Shown here: positions 39,001 through 48,000 of the stretch, in pieces
How the letters are laid out: each line of letters begins with the position of its first letter
How positions within the stretch are numbered: the stretch's first letter is position 1
Assembly (NCBI GenBank): GCA_051531975.1
Contig: JAOPTT010000009.1
Coordinates: 160,001-224,000 of the forward strand
Length of the DNA stretch: 64,000 nucleotides
DNA from: Spirochaetaceae bacterium
GTDB taxonomy: Bacteria; Spirochaetota; Spirochaetia; DSM-2461
Direction of reading: 5' to 3'
Position numbers: made by a program

Positions 39001-42000
39001 AAATGGGTTGGATTCAAGAATTTCATTACTACATTTAATGATAAAAGATTTTTAAAGTCATTAGAAAATTCATTTATCCTTATAACTTATATTCCTGTTG
39101 CAACTTTTTTGCCTGTTATTCTCGCAGCTTTTTTAAAAGAAGGTTTACCAGGGTGGGGTATATTTAGAACAATATTATATCTTCCTAACGTAATGGGTGG
39201 AGTTTTAGTTGCTATTTTATATAAAACTTTTTTAAGACCTGATGGACCTTTTAATACTATTTTACGATCAATAGGTCTAAGCATATTGGCAAGAGACTGG
39301 CTTGTAGATAGTTCCCAGTCAATTCATACTGTTGGATTATTAACTATACTGTCTGTATTAGGCTTTGGTTGCATCTTTTTCATAGCTGCTATGAGTAGCA
39401 TTGATAGCTCACTTTATGAAGCGGCTGTTCTTGATGGAGCTAATTGGTGGCAATCATTTATCCATATTACAATACCGTCTATACGGTTTTCAATTGAGTT
39501 TTTTCTAGTTCTTCAGTTTATAAATGTATTTGCCAGGATGTTTGGCTTAATTTATAACCTCACATTTGGGGGTCCAGGGTTTTCAACCTATACATTTGAA
39601 TTTGGTGTATATGTACAGGGATTCCAACAATATAGATATGGTCTTGCAAGTGCATGGTCAGTAATATTGTTTTTCTTCTGCTCAATAATTGCAATAGTCC
39701 AGATAAGACTAATGAAAAGGAATGAATCATGAATAATACAATTAAATATAATCCGACACTAAAAATTATAATATATCTAGTTCTAATAGTCTTTTCTACA
39801 CTTGCTATTGGTCCCATAATATTCAGCTTTTTTACAAGTTTCCGTACAAATCCAGATTTTGTAGCTAATACACTAGCACTTCCTAAATCTGCATATTTTG
39901 AAAACTATAAATTTATGATTTTTGATGCTAAAATTTATAGATATTTTGTAAACAATTTAATCATCGGAATAGGTGGTTTATCTATATATATATTTGTTTC
40001 TACCAGTGCCGCATTTGCATTTGGTATACTTAGATTTACAGCAAGAAGAGCTATCTTTTTATTGGTTCTTTTTTTAATGATTTTCCCGCAAATGGTAATA
40101 GCAATACCTCTTTTTAAGATTTGTCTTAAATTGGGTATTTACAATACTAGATTAGGATTAATACTAGCATGGGCTGCATATATTGCACCATTTGGGACAT
40201 ATATGTTAACAACCTATTTTTCAACAATTCCAAGGGCTATATATGAATCTGCTCAAATTGATGGTGCTAAGATATATACAGTATTGTTTAGAATCATGAT
40301 GCCAATTGCTAAACCGATGATAACTACTTTGGCTATTATGGGGTTTTTAGGACTCTGGAACGAGTTTACATTCGCTTTACTTCTGCTTCAAACACCTAAG
40401 CTTCGTACTGTTTCTCTTGGTATTGCAATGTTAGCTGGAGAATATGGATTATCTGTACCAAGACTGTCTGCTGGTATAATGATATCGTCTTTAGTTCCTT
40501 TAGGTGTTTTCCTGATATTCCAAAACCGTGTTGCATTTGGAGCATCGGCAGGATCGGTTAAAGGATAATATTCATAAACTATATCACCTGGAGTATAAAC
40601 AGTTATATTTTTATACTCTAGGTGATACAAGGGTCGTTTGGTAGTTTGTCTAGTCTTTATTTAACAAACTGCATTTCAACTGTTAATCCGCCATTTTCAT
40701 TGATATAACAATTGATTTTTCCATTCATTTTATAAACCACAAGATTGTAAACTAATGTCATTCCAAGGCCTCTATATGTAGTTCCCATTTTTGTTGTAAA
40801 AAAGGGTTCAAATATTCTTTTGATAATAGTGTCTTCCATTCCGGTACCATTATCCCCAACTTTTAAAAAGAGCCTATTATTTTCAGAAAAGACATCTATG
40901 TTTATTACACCAGCGGTTACATCTTTTAATCCATGTACAAGGGAATTATTTATTAGATTTGCAACTATTTGTGAAAATGCGGAAGGATAACTATTAAAAA
41001 TCAGATTCTCTTGAATTTTTGTTTTTATTTGGTGACCACTAATTGTAAAACCGTCTGTTCTACCTAAATACTCTATTTCATTTTTTAAGTATTCCGATAA
41101 ATTAAATTGTTCTCTATGATCTTCAATTTTACACACAGCAGTCTCTTTTATTTCGTTAATTAGTGATACCGCACTATTTAAATTGGATTGAACCATATCA
41201 ACAGAGGTTGAAATCATATCTAATTTATCTCTGAGTAGACTTTTACAGCACGATTTAGATGACAAGATGTCCTGAACTTCTTTTAGTAGAAGCTCGATAT
41301 AGGAAGAAGCTGTTATTCCTACACCTAGTGGAGTATTCATTGTGTGGGATATTCCATTTACTAAAAAAATCATAGCCCTCATTTTTTCAGATTCAATAGA
41401 TTTGTCCTGATTCTCTACAAGCTTATTAAATCTGATATTGTGTTTATTTTCTATTGAATGAGTTGGGTATGAATCTAACATAGGAATCTCCTTAAATATG
41501 CTCTAGTTTAATTATAAATCCATATGAATATTGGGGTAGTTTGATTTTTATGACTCTGTTTAATTAATAGGTTTTTGAATTTTAAATATTAACTTAATGT
41601 ATAAAAAAGCGTTCAGTAACATTGTGGACCCTGTGGATCCACAATGTTACTATCTTTTCCGTAGTGTCTGTATTACTTCTTGTAACTGGTAATTATTATC
41701 TTCAAGTAGGAGTCTACTTTCATTTTTATCAATTGAAAAAAGTTCTTTTAAAATAGTCTGTGCTCGTTTTTGCAGTTTTTCATTTACACAGGCCACCTCT
41801 ATCATATAAGAACCTTCAACCTTCCCAAGCTGTATCATCACGCTGGATGATAATGTATTTAGAACCTTTTTAGTTGCTGTCCCGGCTTTCATTCTTGTTG
41901 AACCACATACAACTTCAGGACCGCTGTTTAGAGCTATGTGTTGATCAAAAAACTCTATTTCAGGGTATATATCACTTATTAGAATTGTTAGGCATCCAAG

Positions 42001-45000: not shown

Positions 45001-48000
45001 CCAGACTGTTTGCCAAATGGCTTCTTGTCCTGTTATTGCGAGTGGCATATTTATTCCATTAAGAGCCATCCAGTCTATAAGGCGTTCCCACTCATTCCAG
45101 CCCCAATATGGCATTGAATAGGAAAAAGTACAGTAATTCAAAAAAAATCTATCTTTTAATATTGATGATTTCCATACAGGTGTAGCTTGGGGTAGAACAT
45201 CTGGAACTTCTACAGGATTTTCTACTAACCAGCTTACCATGGTTTTACAGTCATATTTTAGATAGTGGTTTAATGCACAACATATCGATAGGTTATTATT
45301 ACCGGATAATACTATTTTACCGTTGTTATTACTAATCTCAAAATATTCATCATTATCATAGTTTTTTAATAGTTTTAATTCAAATCTTTCCTCATGCTGA
45401 GGTATCAGACGATGTATCATTTCACTTAAAGCCCGTTTGTCTTCATGCTCTGCTAAACTCTTATATATTTTAGTTTTCATATGAACTCCTCTTATATATT
45501 CTTGTATTTTTATTGCTCTGGATTTAAAGTATAGATATCATTTTAGATCATATGGCTATATTGTATTTAGCAATTTCATTCACAATTGGGGGCAATTTAT
45601 GTCAATGTCAAAGTTAAAAGGAATCACTCCAACATATACAGCACCAAATGTTACTGTGCATCAAAACAGATGCCCTATAGAGAAATTTTCAGGGGCATGG
45701 TTTCTTAAAATACCTAAAGAGGTGACAACTGTAACTTTTACTCCTCCAGGGCATCTGCTTCATTATATTATTAAAGGTGAATATGTAGTTTTAATAGAAG
45801 GTAGGGAATATAAAGTTAAACAAGGCGATATTATTTATTATTATGGTGTGGAAGAAGTCGCAGCTATTAATAAGGCAGAGGCGGTAGAGTTTTATTCAAT
45901 ATCCTTTCATGCTCCTGATCTTAATTTTAATACTGGTGATAACAGGGTATTTCATGACCAGAAATTTATGAAGCCATTATTTGAAACTATTTATACTAAT
46001 AATAATATGCCGGGGTTACACTCTCTTATCACAATTTTTGATAACCTTTTTCAAATTATAGGCAACTTAATTATTAAAGAAACAATGTTAATTCAACAAC
46101 ATACGCACTCTGAGTTGTGGGATAGGGTTGAGCGTTATATAAAAGAGAATCGTATGTTTCGACTTTCGATTACAGAGCTATCTGAATGGGGTGGTGTAAG
46201 TGCATCATCCCTTCACCGTTCATGTATAAATCACTGTGGTGTGAGCCCTGGTAAAAGAATGAAAATGCTTCGTATGGCTGAAGCAAAAGGTTTAATACAA
46301 TTTACAGAACTTTCAATTTCTGAGATCTCTATAGAACTTGGGTATGAGAGACCACATGAGTTATCTAGGGAGGTGAAACACTTTTTTGGTGAATCTCCTA
46401 TGAGGTTAAGACAATCAATATAAAATAATACTGCAATACTTTCGAGGTTTTTATAGGGGAAGTGTTTTTCTATATTCCGATGGGGATATACTATTATGGC
46501 GTTTAAAAATACGCCAAAAATAATGAATAGAACTAAATCCACAATGTTCTGCTATCACCTCAATATTTAATGTACTGTTTAATAATAGTGCTTTGGCATG
46601 ACTTAGCCTTGTTATTAAAAGATCATTTAAAGGTGATACCAAAAAAAACTTTTTATATAGTACTGAGAAGCGACTGGAACTAAGAGGGACAAGAGTGGAC
46701 ATTTCATCTATTGTCCATTTTTTATCATATGATTGTTGTACTGTCATTCGAATATCCTGAAATACTGGTAGTAGTTCCTTCTGTCTTTCACTTAGGAAAT
46801 TATCAGATTTGTTATTAACTCCTCGGGCTATCTCAAGGAGAATTCCTCTAATCAGTAGATCAATCTTCTCTCTCCAGTAACTATCTTTAAGAATGCTCTC
46901 TTTTTGAAGTTCAAAAAATTGTGTTAATAATTTCACATCCTGAGTGAGTTTAATAGGTATATTTATTGGTATGTTTAACTCATTAATTAATCCCTCGATA
47001 CTTTCGTCATTAAATATAAACCAGTTGTTTTTAAAACATTTGTCTATTCCCTGATGCCATTGGGGGTAGTTTGGTGAATTAATTAGAATCTCTCCAGGTG
47101 TACCATCAATCACTCCTTTTGGGGTTTTTACTCTAAAGGCAGTTGTAAAGTGCATAAATACCCAATCCCCAAAACCATTTCTGTTTTTGTATGTATCATC
47201 AGCAGATCTATCTGGATAATTTAGAGATAAACCAATCATTTTTAAGTCAATCATAATTGTAATAATAAAAGGATAGTGCAAATTGTCAAGGGAATATGAT
47301 ATGTACTTATGCCTATGGTGGGACTATTGTTAGTACATGAAAAATAAAGAATTACGATTTAGACAGATACATCTGGATTTTCATACATCTCCAGTTATTG
47401 AAGGTATCGGAGAGCACTTCGATAAAACCAAGTTCCAGCAAGCTCTACTTGCAGGACATGTAGACTCTATTACCTGTTTTTCTTCATGTCACCACGGCCT
47501 AAGTTATCACCCTACTAAGGTTGGAACAGTACATCCTAATCTTAAAATAGACTTACTTAGAGCTCAACTAGATGCTTGTCACGAAATAGATGTAAAAGTT
47601 CCAGTATATCTAACTGCTGGAGTAGACAATCTTGCTGCAGAAGAACATCCTGAATGGAGGGAAATAGATAAAGATGGAAGTATTACCGGTTGGACATCAT
47701 CACCACTTGATCCCGGTTTTAAAACATTGTGTTTTAATTCTCCATATTTGGAATATTTATGCTCTAAAATAAATGAGGTTGTTACTTTATACCCTGAATC
47801 AGATGGAATCTTTTTAGATATTATATCGCAAAGTGAATGCTGCTGCCCGTATTGTATGGAGGTAATGAAAAAGAATGATCTTAATCCAACTATCAGGGTA
47901 GACCGACTAAAATGTTCAGAAATTGCATTGATCTCATATTATCAGAAAACAACTGAAGCTTGTAAAATAATTGATTCTAACATGCCTATTTTCCACAATA

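Follow-up and report, generated by a model that had tools for sequence, protein, structure and literature searches.

The stretch of DNA analysed here (the window; 64,000 nucleotides of a Spirochaetaceae bacterium genome) carries on its minus strand, at 41650..45480, a single stop-free open reading frame for a 1276-aa protein, P0001, whose start is the earliest possible start codon in an open frame of 1295 codons. Three enzyme parts follow one another along the chain: a GH89 alpha-N-acetylglucosaminidase (aa 17-718; 43327..45432, minus strand), a ROK-like sugar kinase (aa 726-1005; 42466..43305, minus strand), and a MurQ-type etherase (aa 1008-1272; 41665..42459, minus strand). Pfam matches comprise NAGLU_N (aa 17-97, 4e-22), NAGLU (aa 111-445, 7.7e-134, model positions 1-335 of 336), NAGLU_C (aa 454-718, 1.1e-62), ROK (aa 727-875, 1.4e-6, model positions 2-146 of 294), and GKRP_SIS_N (aa 1056-1156, 5.5e-9). 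The NCBIfam model NF003915 (MurNAc-6-P etherase) scores 224 bits on aa 1008-1272 against a cut-off of 168; the equivalog TIGR00274 reaches 181 bits, below its cut-off of 302. Matches to solved structures include human NAGLU (4xwh, 6.6e-137), CpGH89 (2vc9, 2.9e-89), and MurQ (4s12, 1.3e-36). The open reading frame and these matches bear out the survey's finding of three enzymes in one chain, and its claim that MurQ occurs nowhere else likewise holds: across the 5.46-Mb genome, NF003915 and PF05089 each match once, both in the fusion gene.

As the survey had stated, P0001 has no signal peptide; its N-terminus contains no hydrophobic run, nor do those of the two other fused proteins, although a crude script test detects such a run in 122 of 149 GH89 sequences. 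By its missing signal sequence, the protein is judged cytoplasmic. The same architecture recurs in P0015 (1278 aa) and P0003 (1267 aa, 36% identical), giving three fused clusters. Only one relative with these domains, of 929 aa, had been counted before. That relative does possess the domains, but it is a fragment, its 90% cluster holding the full-length P0015, and P0003 raises the count.

A terminator-like hairpin of 18 pairs with a T run, detected by a consensus scan, lies immediately past the fusion stop codon (41614..41652, minus strand), and downstream of the gene is a 274-aa histidine-kinase-like protein with a HATPase_c domain in Pfam and NCBIfam (40657..41481, minus strand). A divergent AraC-type regulator with a cupin ligand-binding domain (45599..46423, plus strand; Pfam HTH_18, AraC_binding) is, from its position, a candidate regulator of the fusion gene. 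An ABC sugar importer (35937..40568, plus strand; Pfam SBP_bac_1, BPD_transp_1) consists of two paralogous lipoprotein-type solute-binding proteins with N-terminal signal sequences (35937-37235 and 37502-38800) and two permeases (38842-39732 and 39729-40568). Its candidate sensor or regulator is a 638-aa membrane-anchored protein with a hydrophobic N-terminus and a C-terminal AraC-type HTH (33894..35810, minus strand; Pfam HTH_18). On the other side lie a signal-less protein with GHL6 and GH42M domains, which may be a cytoplasmic glycosidase belonging to this island (47337..49385, plus strand), and two URO-D/MtaA-like genes flanking an AraC regulator within 49461..52743 (49461-50513 and 51547-52743, both minus strand; Pfam URO-D, weak MtaA/CmuA matches).

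About 8 kb from the fusion gene, a secreted S1_20-type sulfatase is encoded (31950..33737, minus strand; Pfam Sulfatase and SGSH_C), with 7ana and 7an1 as its best solved relatives (about 1e-108). It contains the S1_20 motif CQRQAHNYYP (bioRxiv 10.1101/2020.11.20.392076) and the formylglycine motif CAPSR, and is predicted to be an exo-acting 3-O-sulfo-Gal/GalNAc sulfatase. Together with the importer, it points to a sulfated glycan rather than to peptidoglycan recycling; neither AnmK nor NamZ was detected in the genome, which is 98.5% complete, and nagA is present elsewhere (432 bits). The fusion kinase was detected in none of 400 genomes sampled from the phylum and in none of 400 from the class, the class sample including 3 genomes from within the genus and 37 from within the family. 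The adjoining Suf operon is 67-79% identical at the nucleotide level to three congeners, and from about 31.9 kb onward no nucleotide similarity to them was found. Most likely, the gene was acquired horizontally within a sulfated-glycan utilisation island.

The half-length ROK match had raised the concern of an inactive kinase or a mere sugar-binding module. This concern is lifted because the structure model of kinase and MurQ-type parts (pLDDT 88.8, pTM 0.89) contains a complete ROK fold, matching NanK 5nck over 292 columns, and because the ATP-binding and catalytic motifs DxGG, N-D, GTGxG, and GG are conserved. The kinase belongs to a family of ROK-MurQ fusions of about 580 aa. A search of 1.84 billion representatives places it closest to proteins of 520-600 aa; of 28 that were scanned, 22 pair ROK with a MurQ-type SIS domain and a further 3 have the SIS part only. 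The pair also appears in an Atlas cluster of 193 members. None of 21 family kinases keeps the Glu/His sugar-binding pair of ROK enzymes, the two positions holding L/F/H and S/A/D throughout; in the fusion kinase they are Leu and Ser, and the Zn-Cys motif is absent. According to PMC10465942, the lactyl ether of MurNAc would collide with a bulky Glu or His at the ROK sugar site. The loss of the pair would fit a sugar with a bulky 3-O group. As a separate observation, the Asn preceding the catalytic Asp is kept in all 21 kinases; this counts against a MurNAc-like substrate, since that paper describes a Thr there in Tannerella forsythia MurK, giving the lactyl group room.

GH89 and ROK-MurQ have been fused in two distinct lineages; the MurQ and the GH89 trees each require at least two changes (FastTree only, P0003 being long-branched in the latter). 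The association also exists without fusion: a Draconibacterium locus (L006) encodes a separate GH89, an S1_20-type sulfatase, and a ROK-MurQ protein in a co-directional row, the only one of eight stand-alone ROK-MurQ loci with flanking genes to include GH89. The sulfatase of the window is its genome's top match to that of L006 (42% identity, 6e-99; runner-up 30%). Directly 3' of ROK-MurQ in L006 is a URO-D-like gene, which is not the closest homologue of the window's two. An MFS or sugar transporter accompanies ROK-MurQ in six of the eight loci.

In the GH89 part, both catalytic Glu are predicted at E296 and E427, which align with E316 and E446 of human NAGLU (named in PMC13207710), and 81 of 103 highly conserved columns are kept. 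Two positions deviate: position 182 is Trp in 142 and position 187 Asn in 141 of 146 stand-alone enzymes, as in human NAGLU and CpGH89, whereas all three fused proteins have Phe at 182 and Ile, Ile, or Cys at 187 (F182 and I187 in P0001). Such a change could mean that the subsite for the released sugar takes alpha-linked MurNAc, which the kinase would convert to MurNAc-6-P and MurQ to GlcNAc-6-P and D-lactate, so that pathway order would equal domain order; the kinase pocket also seems enlarged where a 3-O group would sit. However, the same Phe plus Ile/Val pair occurs in four secreted stand-alone GH89 enzymes, and the GH89 of L006 is of the ordinary secreted type with Trp and Asn. Moreover, we know of no alpha-MurNAc glycoside that is a common nutrient. 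This proposal, which the survey had raised, is quite unlikely as a whole and is not supported in that form; release of alpha-MurNAc may be just one option for the GH89 substrate.

The modelled MurQ-type domain superposes on solved MurQ with an rmsd of 1.8-1.9 Å, and Glu is kept in all 23 family members at both of the positions that we take to be the MurQ catalytic sites. Several residues are altered in motifs whose conservation among 69 canonical MurQ is 85% or more (P1090C, A1109D/E, T1148A, P1149F/Y, Y1222, and N1224). By FastTree, the ROK-fused MurQ domains, 31 in all, group into a single clade (support 100, branch 0.72) apart from the 87 other MurQ in the tree. Furthermore, all three Bacteroidota genomes checked that carry ROK-MurQ also have a canonical MurQ, adjoining a 278-aa gene without Pfam match in one (G401) and a beta-lactamase-family gene and a Na+/solute symporter in another (G595). 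From its sequence, the domain is thus best described as a divergent paralogue coexisting with canonical MurQ in other genomes; therefore, even MurNAc-6-P is only a putative substrate, and the substrate of ROK-MurQ may be another.

Such a domain might have lost catalysis and serve as a sugar-phosphate sensor regulating the kinase or glycosidase, as GKRP does glucokinase. The fusion SIS domain has weak GKRP matches, and GKRP is a phosphosugar-binding descendant of MurQ, according to bioRxiv 10.64898/2026.05.08.723886. This role is highly improbable, as the 23 family members show little or no variation in the presumed catalytic Glu pair, the TSGR phosphate loop, and the GSTRMKAGTATK motif.

Alternatively, ROK-MurQ could phosphorylate a HexNAc other than MurNAc and then remove its 3-O sulfate, glycosyl group (e.g., in Gal-beta-1,3-GlcNAc), or other ether by MurQ-type elimination, with GH89 uncapping alpha-GlcNAc to supply the substrate. 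The chemistry of the known MurQ mechanism should permit any 3-O leaving group. The separate clade, the consistently altered motifs, and the coexisting canonical enzymes all favour this idea, as do the host- and algal-glycan enzymes that abound in ROK-MurQ loci (GH84, GH89, GH95, GH29, and S1_20 sulfatase). Nevertheless, the domain scores above the cut-off of the NCBI MurQ subfamily and its model closely matches the MurQ structure, and BadF-type kinase-MurQ fusions, taken as a MurK-like kinase plus etherase, exist as well. Overall, we regard it as unlikely.

Another candidate substrate is (ManNAc or Rha)-GlcNAc-alpha-1-phosphate-6-MurNAc, left over from the attachment of teichoic acids, rhamnose polysaccharides, or arabinogalactan to peptidoglycan. 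If GH89 split its GlcNAc-1-phosphate bond, GlcNAc and MurNAc-6-P would result, the kinase acting on the former and MurQ on the latter to yield two GlcNAc-6-P. GlcNAc 2-epimerase-family genes in three of the eight ROK-MurQ loci would handle ManNAc, and one locus has rhamnosidase genes. In addition, hydrolysis of UDP-GlcNAc, which is an alpha-GlcNAc-1-phosphate diester, has been reported for human NAGLU (von Figura 1977, as cited in PMC8225759), and NAGLU, murQ, RENBP, NamZ, and DUF4434 appear side by side among the genes for amino-sugar degradation in a study of gene transfer in ciliates (PMC13198582), although co-listing is not functional evidence. The missing Glu/His pair would be unexpected in a plain GlcNAc kinase, and the sulfatases and fucosidases of the loci are ill-suited to Gram-positive wall polymers; salvage of this kind also seems quite improbable.

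We favour a horizontally acquired cytoplasmic enzyme with three active sites, which probably converts a fragment of a sulfated glycan, bacterial or host-like, to GlcNAc-6-phosphate after its import; to this explanation, including the following route, we assign a probability of roughly 55%. The secreted sulfatase would trim an oligosaccharide outside the cell for import by the neighbouring ABC system, and the GH89 part would then release an alpha-linked N-acetylhexosamine from its terminus, with GlcNAc as the default assumption. The ROK-like kinase lacking the Glu/His pair would phosphorylate O6 of a HexNAc with a bulky, MurNAc-like 3-O substituent, the MurQ-type domain would eliminate the 3-O group, with hydration yielding GlcNAc-6-P, and this would pass to NagA. 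Of the pathway proposed in the survey, the placing of all three parts in one catabolic route is supported by the nearly universal MurQ fusion among the kinase's closest relatives, the twofold joining of GH89, its occurrence as a neighbour in one Bacteroidota locus, and the presence of nagA. What the analysis establishes is which domains are present, that their folds are complete and their catalytic residues retained, and that both the ROK-MurQ pair and its association with GH89 recur; we infer the step order, 6-kinase activity, nature of the 3-O group, and identity of the glycan. This analysis identified no natural glycan in which alpha-GlcNAc occurs together with a MurNAc-like residue.

Each part of the proposed enzyme has known counterparts. 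Human NAGLU, CpGH89, and Bacteroides thetaiotaomicron Bt3590 share the three-domain layout and both catalytic Glu with the fusion GH89, which differs in lacking a signal peptide, in being joined to two further enzymes, and in F182/I187. ROK kinases such as NagK, NanK, and glucokinases have the fold and the ATP-binding and catalytic Asp motifs in common with the fusion kinase, but their GE-x-GH motif is L-L-G-S here and the Zn-binding Cys cluster is absent. Canonical MurQ (33-37% identity) shares the SIS fold with lid, the catalytic Glu, and the phosphate-binding motifs; the fusion domain, by contrast, departs from the canonical ECPPT, ASGRTPY, and Y-x-N motifs, has an additional residue before the acidic cluster, scores below the equivalog cut-off, falls in a separate long-branched clade, and is kinase-fused. 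MurQ is likewise joined to a BadF-type kinase in Actinomycetota, Verrucomicrobiota, and fungi, and to GH3, an N-acetylhexosaminidase-family glycosidase. These involve another kinase family (PF01869) or a beta-acting enzyme, their MurQ domains lie among canonical MurQ, and none unites glycosidase, kinase, and etherase. The MurT-MurK-MurQ system of T. forsythia (named as a MurNAc uptake system in the PMC5790795 abstract) and other Bacteroidota follows the same succession of transporter, 6-kinase, and etherase. Here, however, the kinase is ROK-like by sequence, which MurK is not (PMC10465942), kinase and etherase form a single chain, the loci are glycan-degrading PULs, and canonical MurQ is found elsewhere in the carriers.

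The survey's finding of three enzyme parts in one gene was confirmed: an uninterrupted open reading frame on the reverse strand (41650..45480) encodes a protein of 1276 aa (P0001), in which a GH89 alpha-N-acetylglucosaminidase (aa 17-718) is followed by a ROK-like kinase (aa 726-1005) and a MurQ-type domain (aa 1008-1272). In a Pfam scan, each of the three GH89 models was matched along its whole length, the ROK model was matched over its first half, and a SIS domain of the MurQ/GKRP type was recognized; solved relatives include human NAGLU (6.6e-137), CpGH89 (2.9e-89), and three MurQ structures (~1e-36). 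Two further statements, that the protein lacks a signal peptide and carries the genome's sole MurQ, also held. Its N-terminus, translated from the earliest possible start codon of the open frame, is not hydrophobic, and the MurQ and NAGLU families each gave one match in the 5.46-Mb genome (98.5% complete), both in the fusion gene. Among the sequencing runs listed for the sequence there was none of RNA, and the single DNA run, labeled marine metagenome, may be the source of the assembly and so lends no independent support.

Each of the three parts belongs to a well-known enzyme family, and their combination is rare. Relatives were sought with aa 720-1276 as the query against proteins of 701-2233 aa in 5.8 billion clusters, with the best 8000 candidates scored. 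Twelve clusters stood among the matches listed, and within these best 8000 candidates the NAGLU-ROK-SIS arrangement occurred in at least three 90%-identity clusters, namely those of P0001, P0002, and P0003 (1267 aa). P0002 (929 aa) is a fragment, and its cluster also holds a full-length protein, P0015 (1278 aa). The three fused proteins align over their whole length, with identities of 55% and 36%. The remaining nine clusters listed comprise eight GH3-MurQ fusions and one fungal fusion of a BadF-type kinase to MurQ. Trees of the MurQ and GH89 domains both separate P0001 and P0015 from P0003, which would require at least two gains or losses of the fusion; because the GH89 domain of P0003 lies on a long branch, this is suggestive rather than proven. 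No report of MurQ together with GH89 was found in the literature searched, which excluded most subscription journals, and where text was available, publications naming both an etherase and an alpha-N-acetylglucosaminidase merely list them side by side.

The GH89 part is complete, with its N-terminal, TIM-barrel, and C-terminal helical domains covering positions 2-81 of 82, 1-335 of 336, and 1-268 of 268 of the respective Pfam models. E296 (in FNE) and E427 (in LEG) are invariant in all three fused proteins and align with E316 and E446 of human NAGLU, given as the catalytic pair in the accessible text of a study whose 24-743 numbering sets the offset (PMC13207710). By default, this part is predicted from its sequence to hydrolyze terminal alpha-GlcNAc. 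The survey's own version, in which GH89 would release alpha-linked MurNAc, is kept beside that prediction as an unlikely one; the accessible portions of three GH89 papers give no O3 contacts of the bound sugar (PMC8225759, PMC3313936, PMC13207710). The closest stand-alone GH89 proteins share 41-46% identity with the fused part, and the named ones belong to Bacteroidota. Across 146 stand-alone GH89 proteins, conservation reaches at least 93% in 103 columns, and 81 of these are kept by all three fused proteins. Position 182 is Trp in 142 of the 146 and Phe in all three fused proteins; position 187 is Asn in 141 and Ile, Ile, and Cys in the three. Human NAGLU and CpGH89 carry Trp and Asn at these positions, as does the GH89 protein of a Draconibacterium locus discussed below (L006). 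Phe with Ile or Val is also found in four secreted stand-alone GH89 proteins; thus, the pair marks a sub-type that includes every fused form but is not exclusive to the fusions.

Because the ROK model was only half matched, it had been feared that the kinase might be inactive or a sugar-binding module. This worry was not upheld, since the modeled part adopts a complete two-lobed actin-like ATPase fold with conserved ATP-binding and catalytic motifs. When 1.84 billion representatives were searched exhaustively with aa 720-1005 (HMMER), 194 matched at E<=0.001, the best being proteins of 520-600 aa with the kinase at the N-terminus; among 28 relatives scanned, 22 combined ROK with a MurQ-type SIS domain, three had SIS only, and three had ROK only. 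In a 21-member alignment, D730 of the DxGxT/G phosphate loop is kept throughout and the catalytic D834 in 20, while the GTGxG and GG adenosine motifs are each kept in 20-21. The AlphaFold2 model of the kinase and MurQ parts built on this alignment (pLDDT 88.8, pTM 0.89) was compared with solved structures by Foldseek, and its first half aligned over ~290-320 columns with full-length NanK, NagK, and glucokinases (292 columns for NanK 5nck), so the kinase fold is complete.

The second half of the model superposes on solved MurQ at an rmsd of 1.8-1.9 Å over ~270 columns (target TM-score 0.82-0.92), with both the SIS domain and the C-terminal lid present. By profile scores, aa 1008-1272 pass NF003915, the model for the MurQ subfamily (224 bits against a cut-off of 168), and fall below the cut-offs of NF009222 (188 against 255) and of the equivalog TIGR00274 (181 against 302); canonical MurQ proteins of four same-family genomes score ~400 bits on NF003915, compared with 229 for the present one. 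E1087 (the Glu of LDAxE) and E1119 (in an acidic cluster) are present in 23 of 23 family members, and we take them to occupy the positions of the E. coli MurQ catalytic residues E83 and E114. HMMER and MAFFT differ by one residue at E1119, owing to a one-residue insertion in the family at this site. In a FastTree phylogeny of 118 MurQ domains (31 ROK-fused, 69 canonical stand-alone, nine from longer ORFs, eight GH3-fused, and one BadF-fused), all 31 ROK-fused domains form a single clade (support 100, branch length 0.72) apart from the other 87. Compared with the 69 canonical MurQ proteins, the ROK-fused family retains the Glu residues as well as the GSTRMKAGTATK motif and the phosphate loop. 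It departs from the motifs ECPPT(F/Y)G, ASGRTPY, and Y-x-N, which are at least 85% conserved in the 69: P1090C occurs in 23/23 members, T1148A in 18/23, and P1149F/Y in 19/23, and Y-x-N is lost, with Y1222 and N1224 variable. A1109 is also replaced, by D/E in 21/23. The MurQ-type domain is, on this sequence evidence, a distinct paralogue; if its substrate is MurNAc-like, it is predicted to convert MurNAc-6-P to GlcNAc-6-P and D-lactate. MurQ is also joined to GH3 (777-807 aa; P0005-P0012) and to BadF-type kinases (P0004 and Atlas clusters) in Actinomycetota, Verrucomicrobiota, and fungi; the MurQ domains of these fusions, unlike the ROK-fused ones, cluster with canonical MurQ.

The two-domain ROK-MurQ proteins (~580 aa) constitute a sizeable, uncharacterized family (roughly 190 members) in polysaccharide utilization loci of marine and gut Bacteroidota. 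A scan of a genome collection returned mostly plain MurQ, with ROK-MurQ in two of 80 loci among the matches listed. Titles and opening lines of abstracts in the MurQ, ROK, fusion, and MurNAc kinase literature revealed no publication on such a fusion, and the accessible parts of the literature searched held nothing relevant on etherases in polysaccharide utilization loci. All three Bacteroidota carrier genomes examined also contain a canonical MurQ (~270 aa), in one (G401) after a 278-aa gene lacking a Pfam match and in another (G595) flanked by a beta-lactamase-family gene on one side and a Na+/solute symporter on the other; the two systems are thus not redundant copies. In eight ROK-MurQ loci with flanking genes, an MFS or sugar transporter occurs in six, a GlcNAc 2-epimerase-family gene in three, and SusC or SusD in three, alongside GH84, GH29, GH95, GH78/GH106-like, and DUF4434 genes; the literature found on DUF4434 was uninformative about its function. 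Salvage of a wall anchor, GlcNAc-1-P-6-MurNAc, would account for the neighboring epimerase and rhamnosidase genes as well, and human NAGLU is reported to cleave UDP-GlcNAc (PMC8225759, citing von Figura 1977); this version, too, is retained as an unlikely one. A secreted family of 700-758 aa (33-84% mutual identity), which matches neither Pfam nor NCBIfam, is a candidate glycan-cleaving enzyme. Members are paired at L092:9657-14222 and L100:10076-15726, both polysaccharide utilization loci that hold ROK-MurQ together with a sugar transporter and a gene of the GlcNAc 2-epimerase family.

The Draconibacterium locus encodes, all on one strand, SusD, GH89 with a lipoprotein signal, two sulfatases, an unknown 866-aa protein, ROK-MurQ, a URO-D-like protein, and an MFS transporter. 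Its sulfatase beside GH89 has its best match in the present genome in the window, where a secreted S1_20-type sulfatase (31950..33737) shares 42% identity with it (E 6e-99); the next of ~38 sulfatase matches reaches 30%. Both sulfatases carry the formylglycine motif and the S1_20 motif, the latter including a galacto-selecting His as described by Luis et al. (bioRxiv 10.1101/2020.11.20.392076); in the window sulfatase the S1_20 motif reads CQRQAHNYYP and the formylglycine motif CAPSR. Among solved structures, the two are closest to 7ana and 7an1 (~1e-108), which we infer from the data statement of that preprint to be BT1622 and BT1636. Searches with the two sulfatases (tblastn) gave 38-40 matches in the genome, many clustered on another contig (C5), which points to a degrader of sulfated polysaccharides.

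In another reading, ROK-MurQ does not serve MurNAc salvage. Here, phosphorylation followed by elimination would strip a different 3-O substituent, perhaps sulfate, a sugar in beta-1,3 linkage, or an ether of an unusual kind, from N-acetylhexosamines released from sulfated host, algal, or bacterial glycans, and the GH89 fusions would be compact versions that first uncap alpha-GlcNAc. We regard this as unlikely; if true, it would mean non-hydrolytic cleavage of glycans or sulfate esters by a MurQ paralogue, a new glycan-cleaving chemistry.

The stretch from the window sulfatase to the fusion gene encodes a membrane protein of the AraC type, two binding proteins, and two permeases, and a terminator-like hairpin follows the stop codon of the fusion gene. 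Beyond this gene are AraC regulators, a GHL6/GH42M protein without a signal sequence, and two URO-D-like genes. A URO-D tie to the Draconibacterium locus was rejected: the best genome matches of that locus's URO-D-like protein lie on other contigs, so the common annotation is weak evidence. Seven AraC-type HTH proteins were counted in ~21 kb (33894-54614), an unusual regulator density around glycan genes; such intervals include 33894-35810 (a 638-aa membrane form), 45599-46423, 46451-47281, 50615-51541, 52786-53589, and 53682-54614. A promoter scan (18 sites, 23.5 expected) was not informative. A second sugar-phosphate module (54775-57956) comprises a SIS_2 protein (54775-55527), a protein of 343 aa that matches nothing in Pfam (55611-56642), and an oxidoreductase of the GFO/IDH/MocA type (56697-57956), the last being the genome's best match (41%, 7e-99) to one adjoining ROK-MurQ in a metagenome locus (L094). 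The nagA gene lies elsewhere in the genome; AnmK and NamZ were not found in this 98.5% complete assembly, and BadF-type matches sit in frames of 1000-1450 aa.

The fusion island was likely acquired horizontally, as suggested by sequence comparison. At E<=1e-10, none of 400 further genomes in a sample of the phylum gave a match to the kinase domain, nor was it found in 400 sampled from the class, among them three congeners and 37 members of the same family. Moreover, similarity to three congeners ends at the island: the Suf operon just upstream is common to all (67-79% nucleotide identity), and ~31.9-63.8 kb shows only short repeat matches with them. A Bacteroidota-like donor is plausible; the kinase domain occurs in two of 301 genomes of the order to which the Draconibacterium genome belongs. 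The native flank is a complete Suf Fe-S assembly operon (26299-31441; sufB, C, D, S, E and a small FeS_assembly_P gene), and no tRNA lies at the island border or elsewhere in the window. A ~150-nt repeat occurs three times (31790-31944, 58025-58204, and, inverted, 60384-60544), first where similarity to the congeners stops; all copies match one same place in each of the three same-genus genomes. Two form an inverted pair (81-85% complementary) around a hipA-like gene (58317-59621), and a tandem array with a 39-nt period and the repeated word TTTGTAAACTATA (59891-60046) lies between that gene and the inverted repeat arm.

A self-contained three-step cytoplasmic route is the best-supported reading of the fusion protein. 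GH89 would uncap an alpha-linked HexNAc, the kinase would 6-phosphorylate a 3-O-substituted HexNAc, and the MurQ-type domain would remove the 3-O group to yield GlcNAc-6-P. Should the substrate be MurNAc-like, lactyl-ether sugars of non-peptidoglycan glycans would be a nutrient with a pathway of their own. Whichever substituent is involved, the fusion names three activities for joint assay and provides a handle on the roles of some GH89 enzymes outside heparan sulfate and mucin breakdown.

The sugar site of the kinase bears on the second step. ROK proteins are characterized by a GE-x-GH sugar-binding motif and a Zn-binding Cys cluster. Where NanK 5nck has G-E-F-G-H, the present family has (T/P)-L-L-G-S: the ROK Glu and His occur in none of 21 members, which instead carry L/F/H and S/A/D. 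A CxCGxxGC-like Zn-Cys cluster is also absent from the kinase, whose cysteines are at 801, 805, 827, and 956; the part is thus ROK-like rather than a canonical ROK kinase. According to the MurK structure paper (PMC10465942), the bulky Glu or His that other sugar kinases have at the matching position would collide with MurNAc's lactyl ether. Loss of the pair is compatible with a substrate carrying a bulky 3-O group. A counter-point is that the ROK-MurQ family retains an Asn before the catalytic Asp, whereas MurK has Thr at this position.
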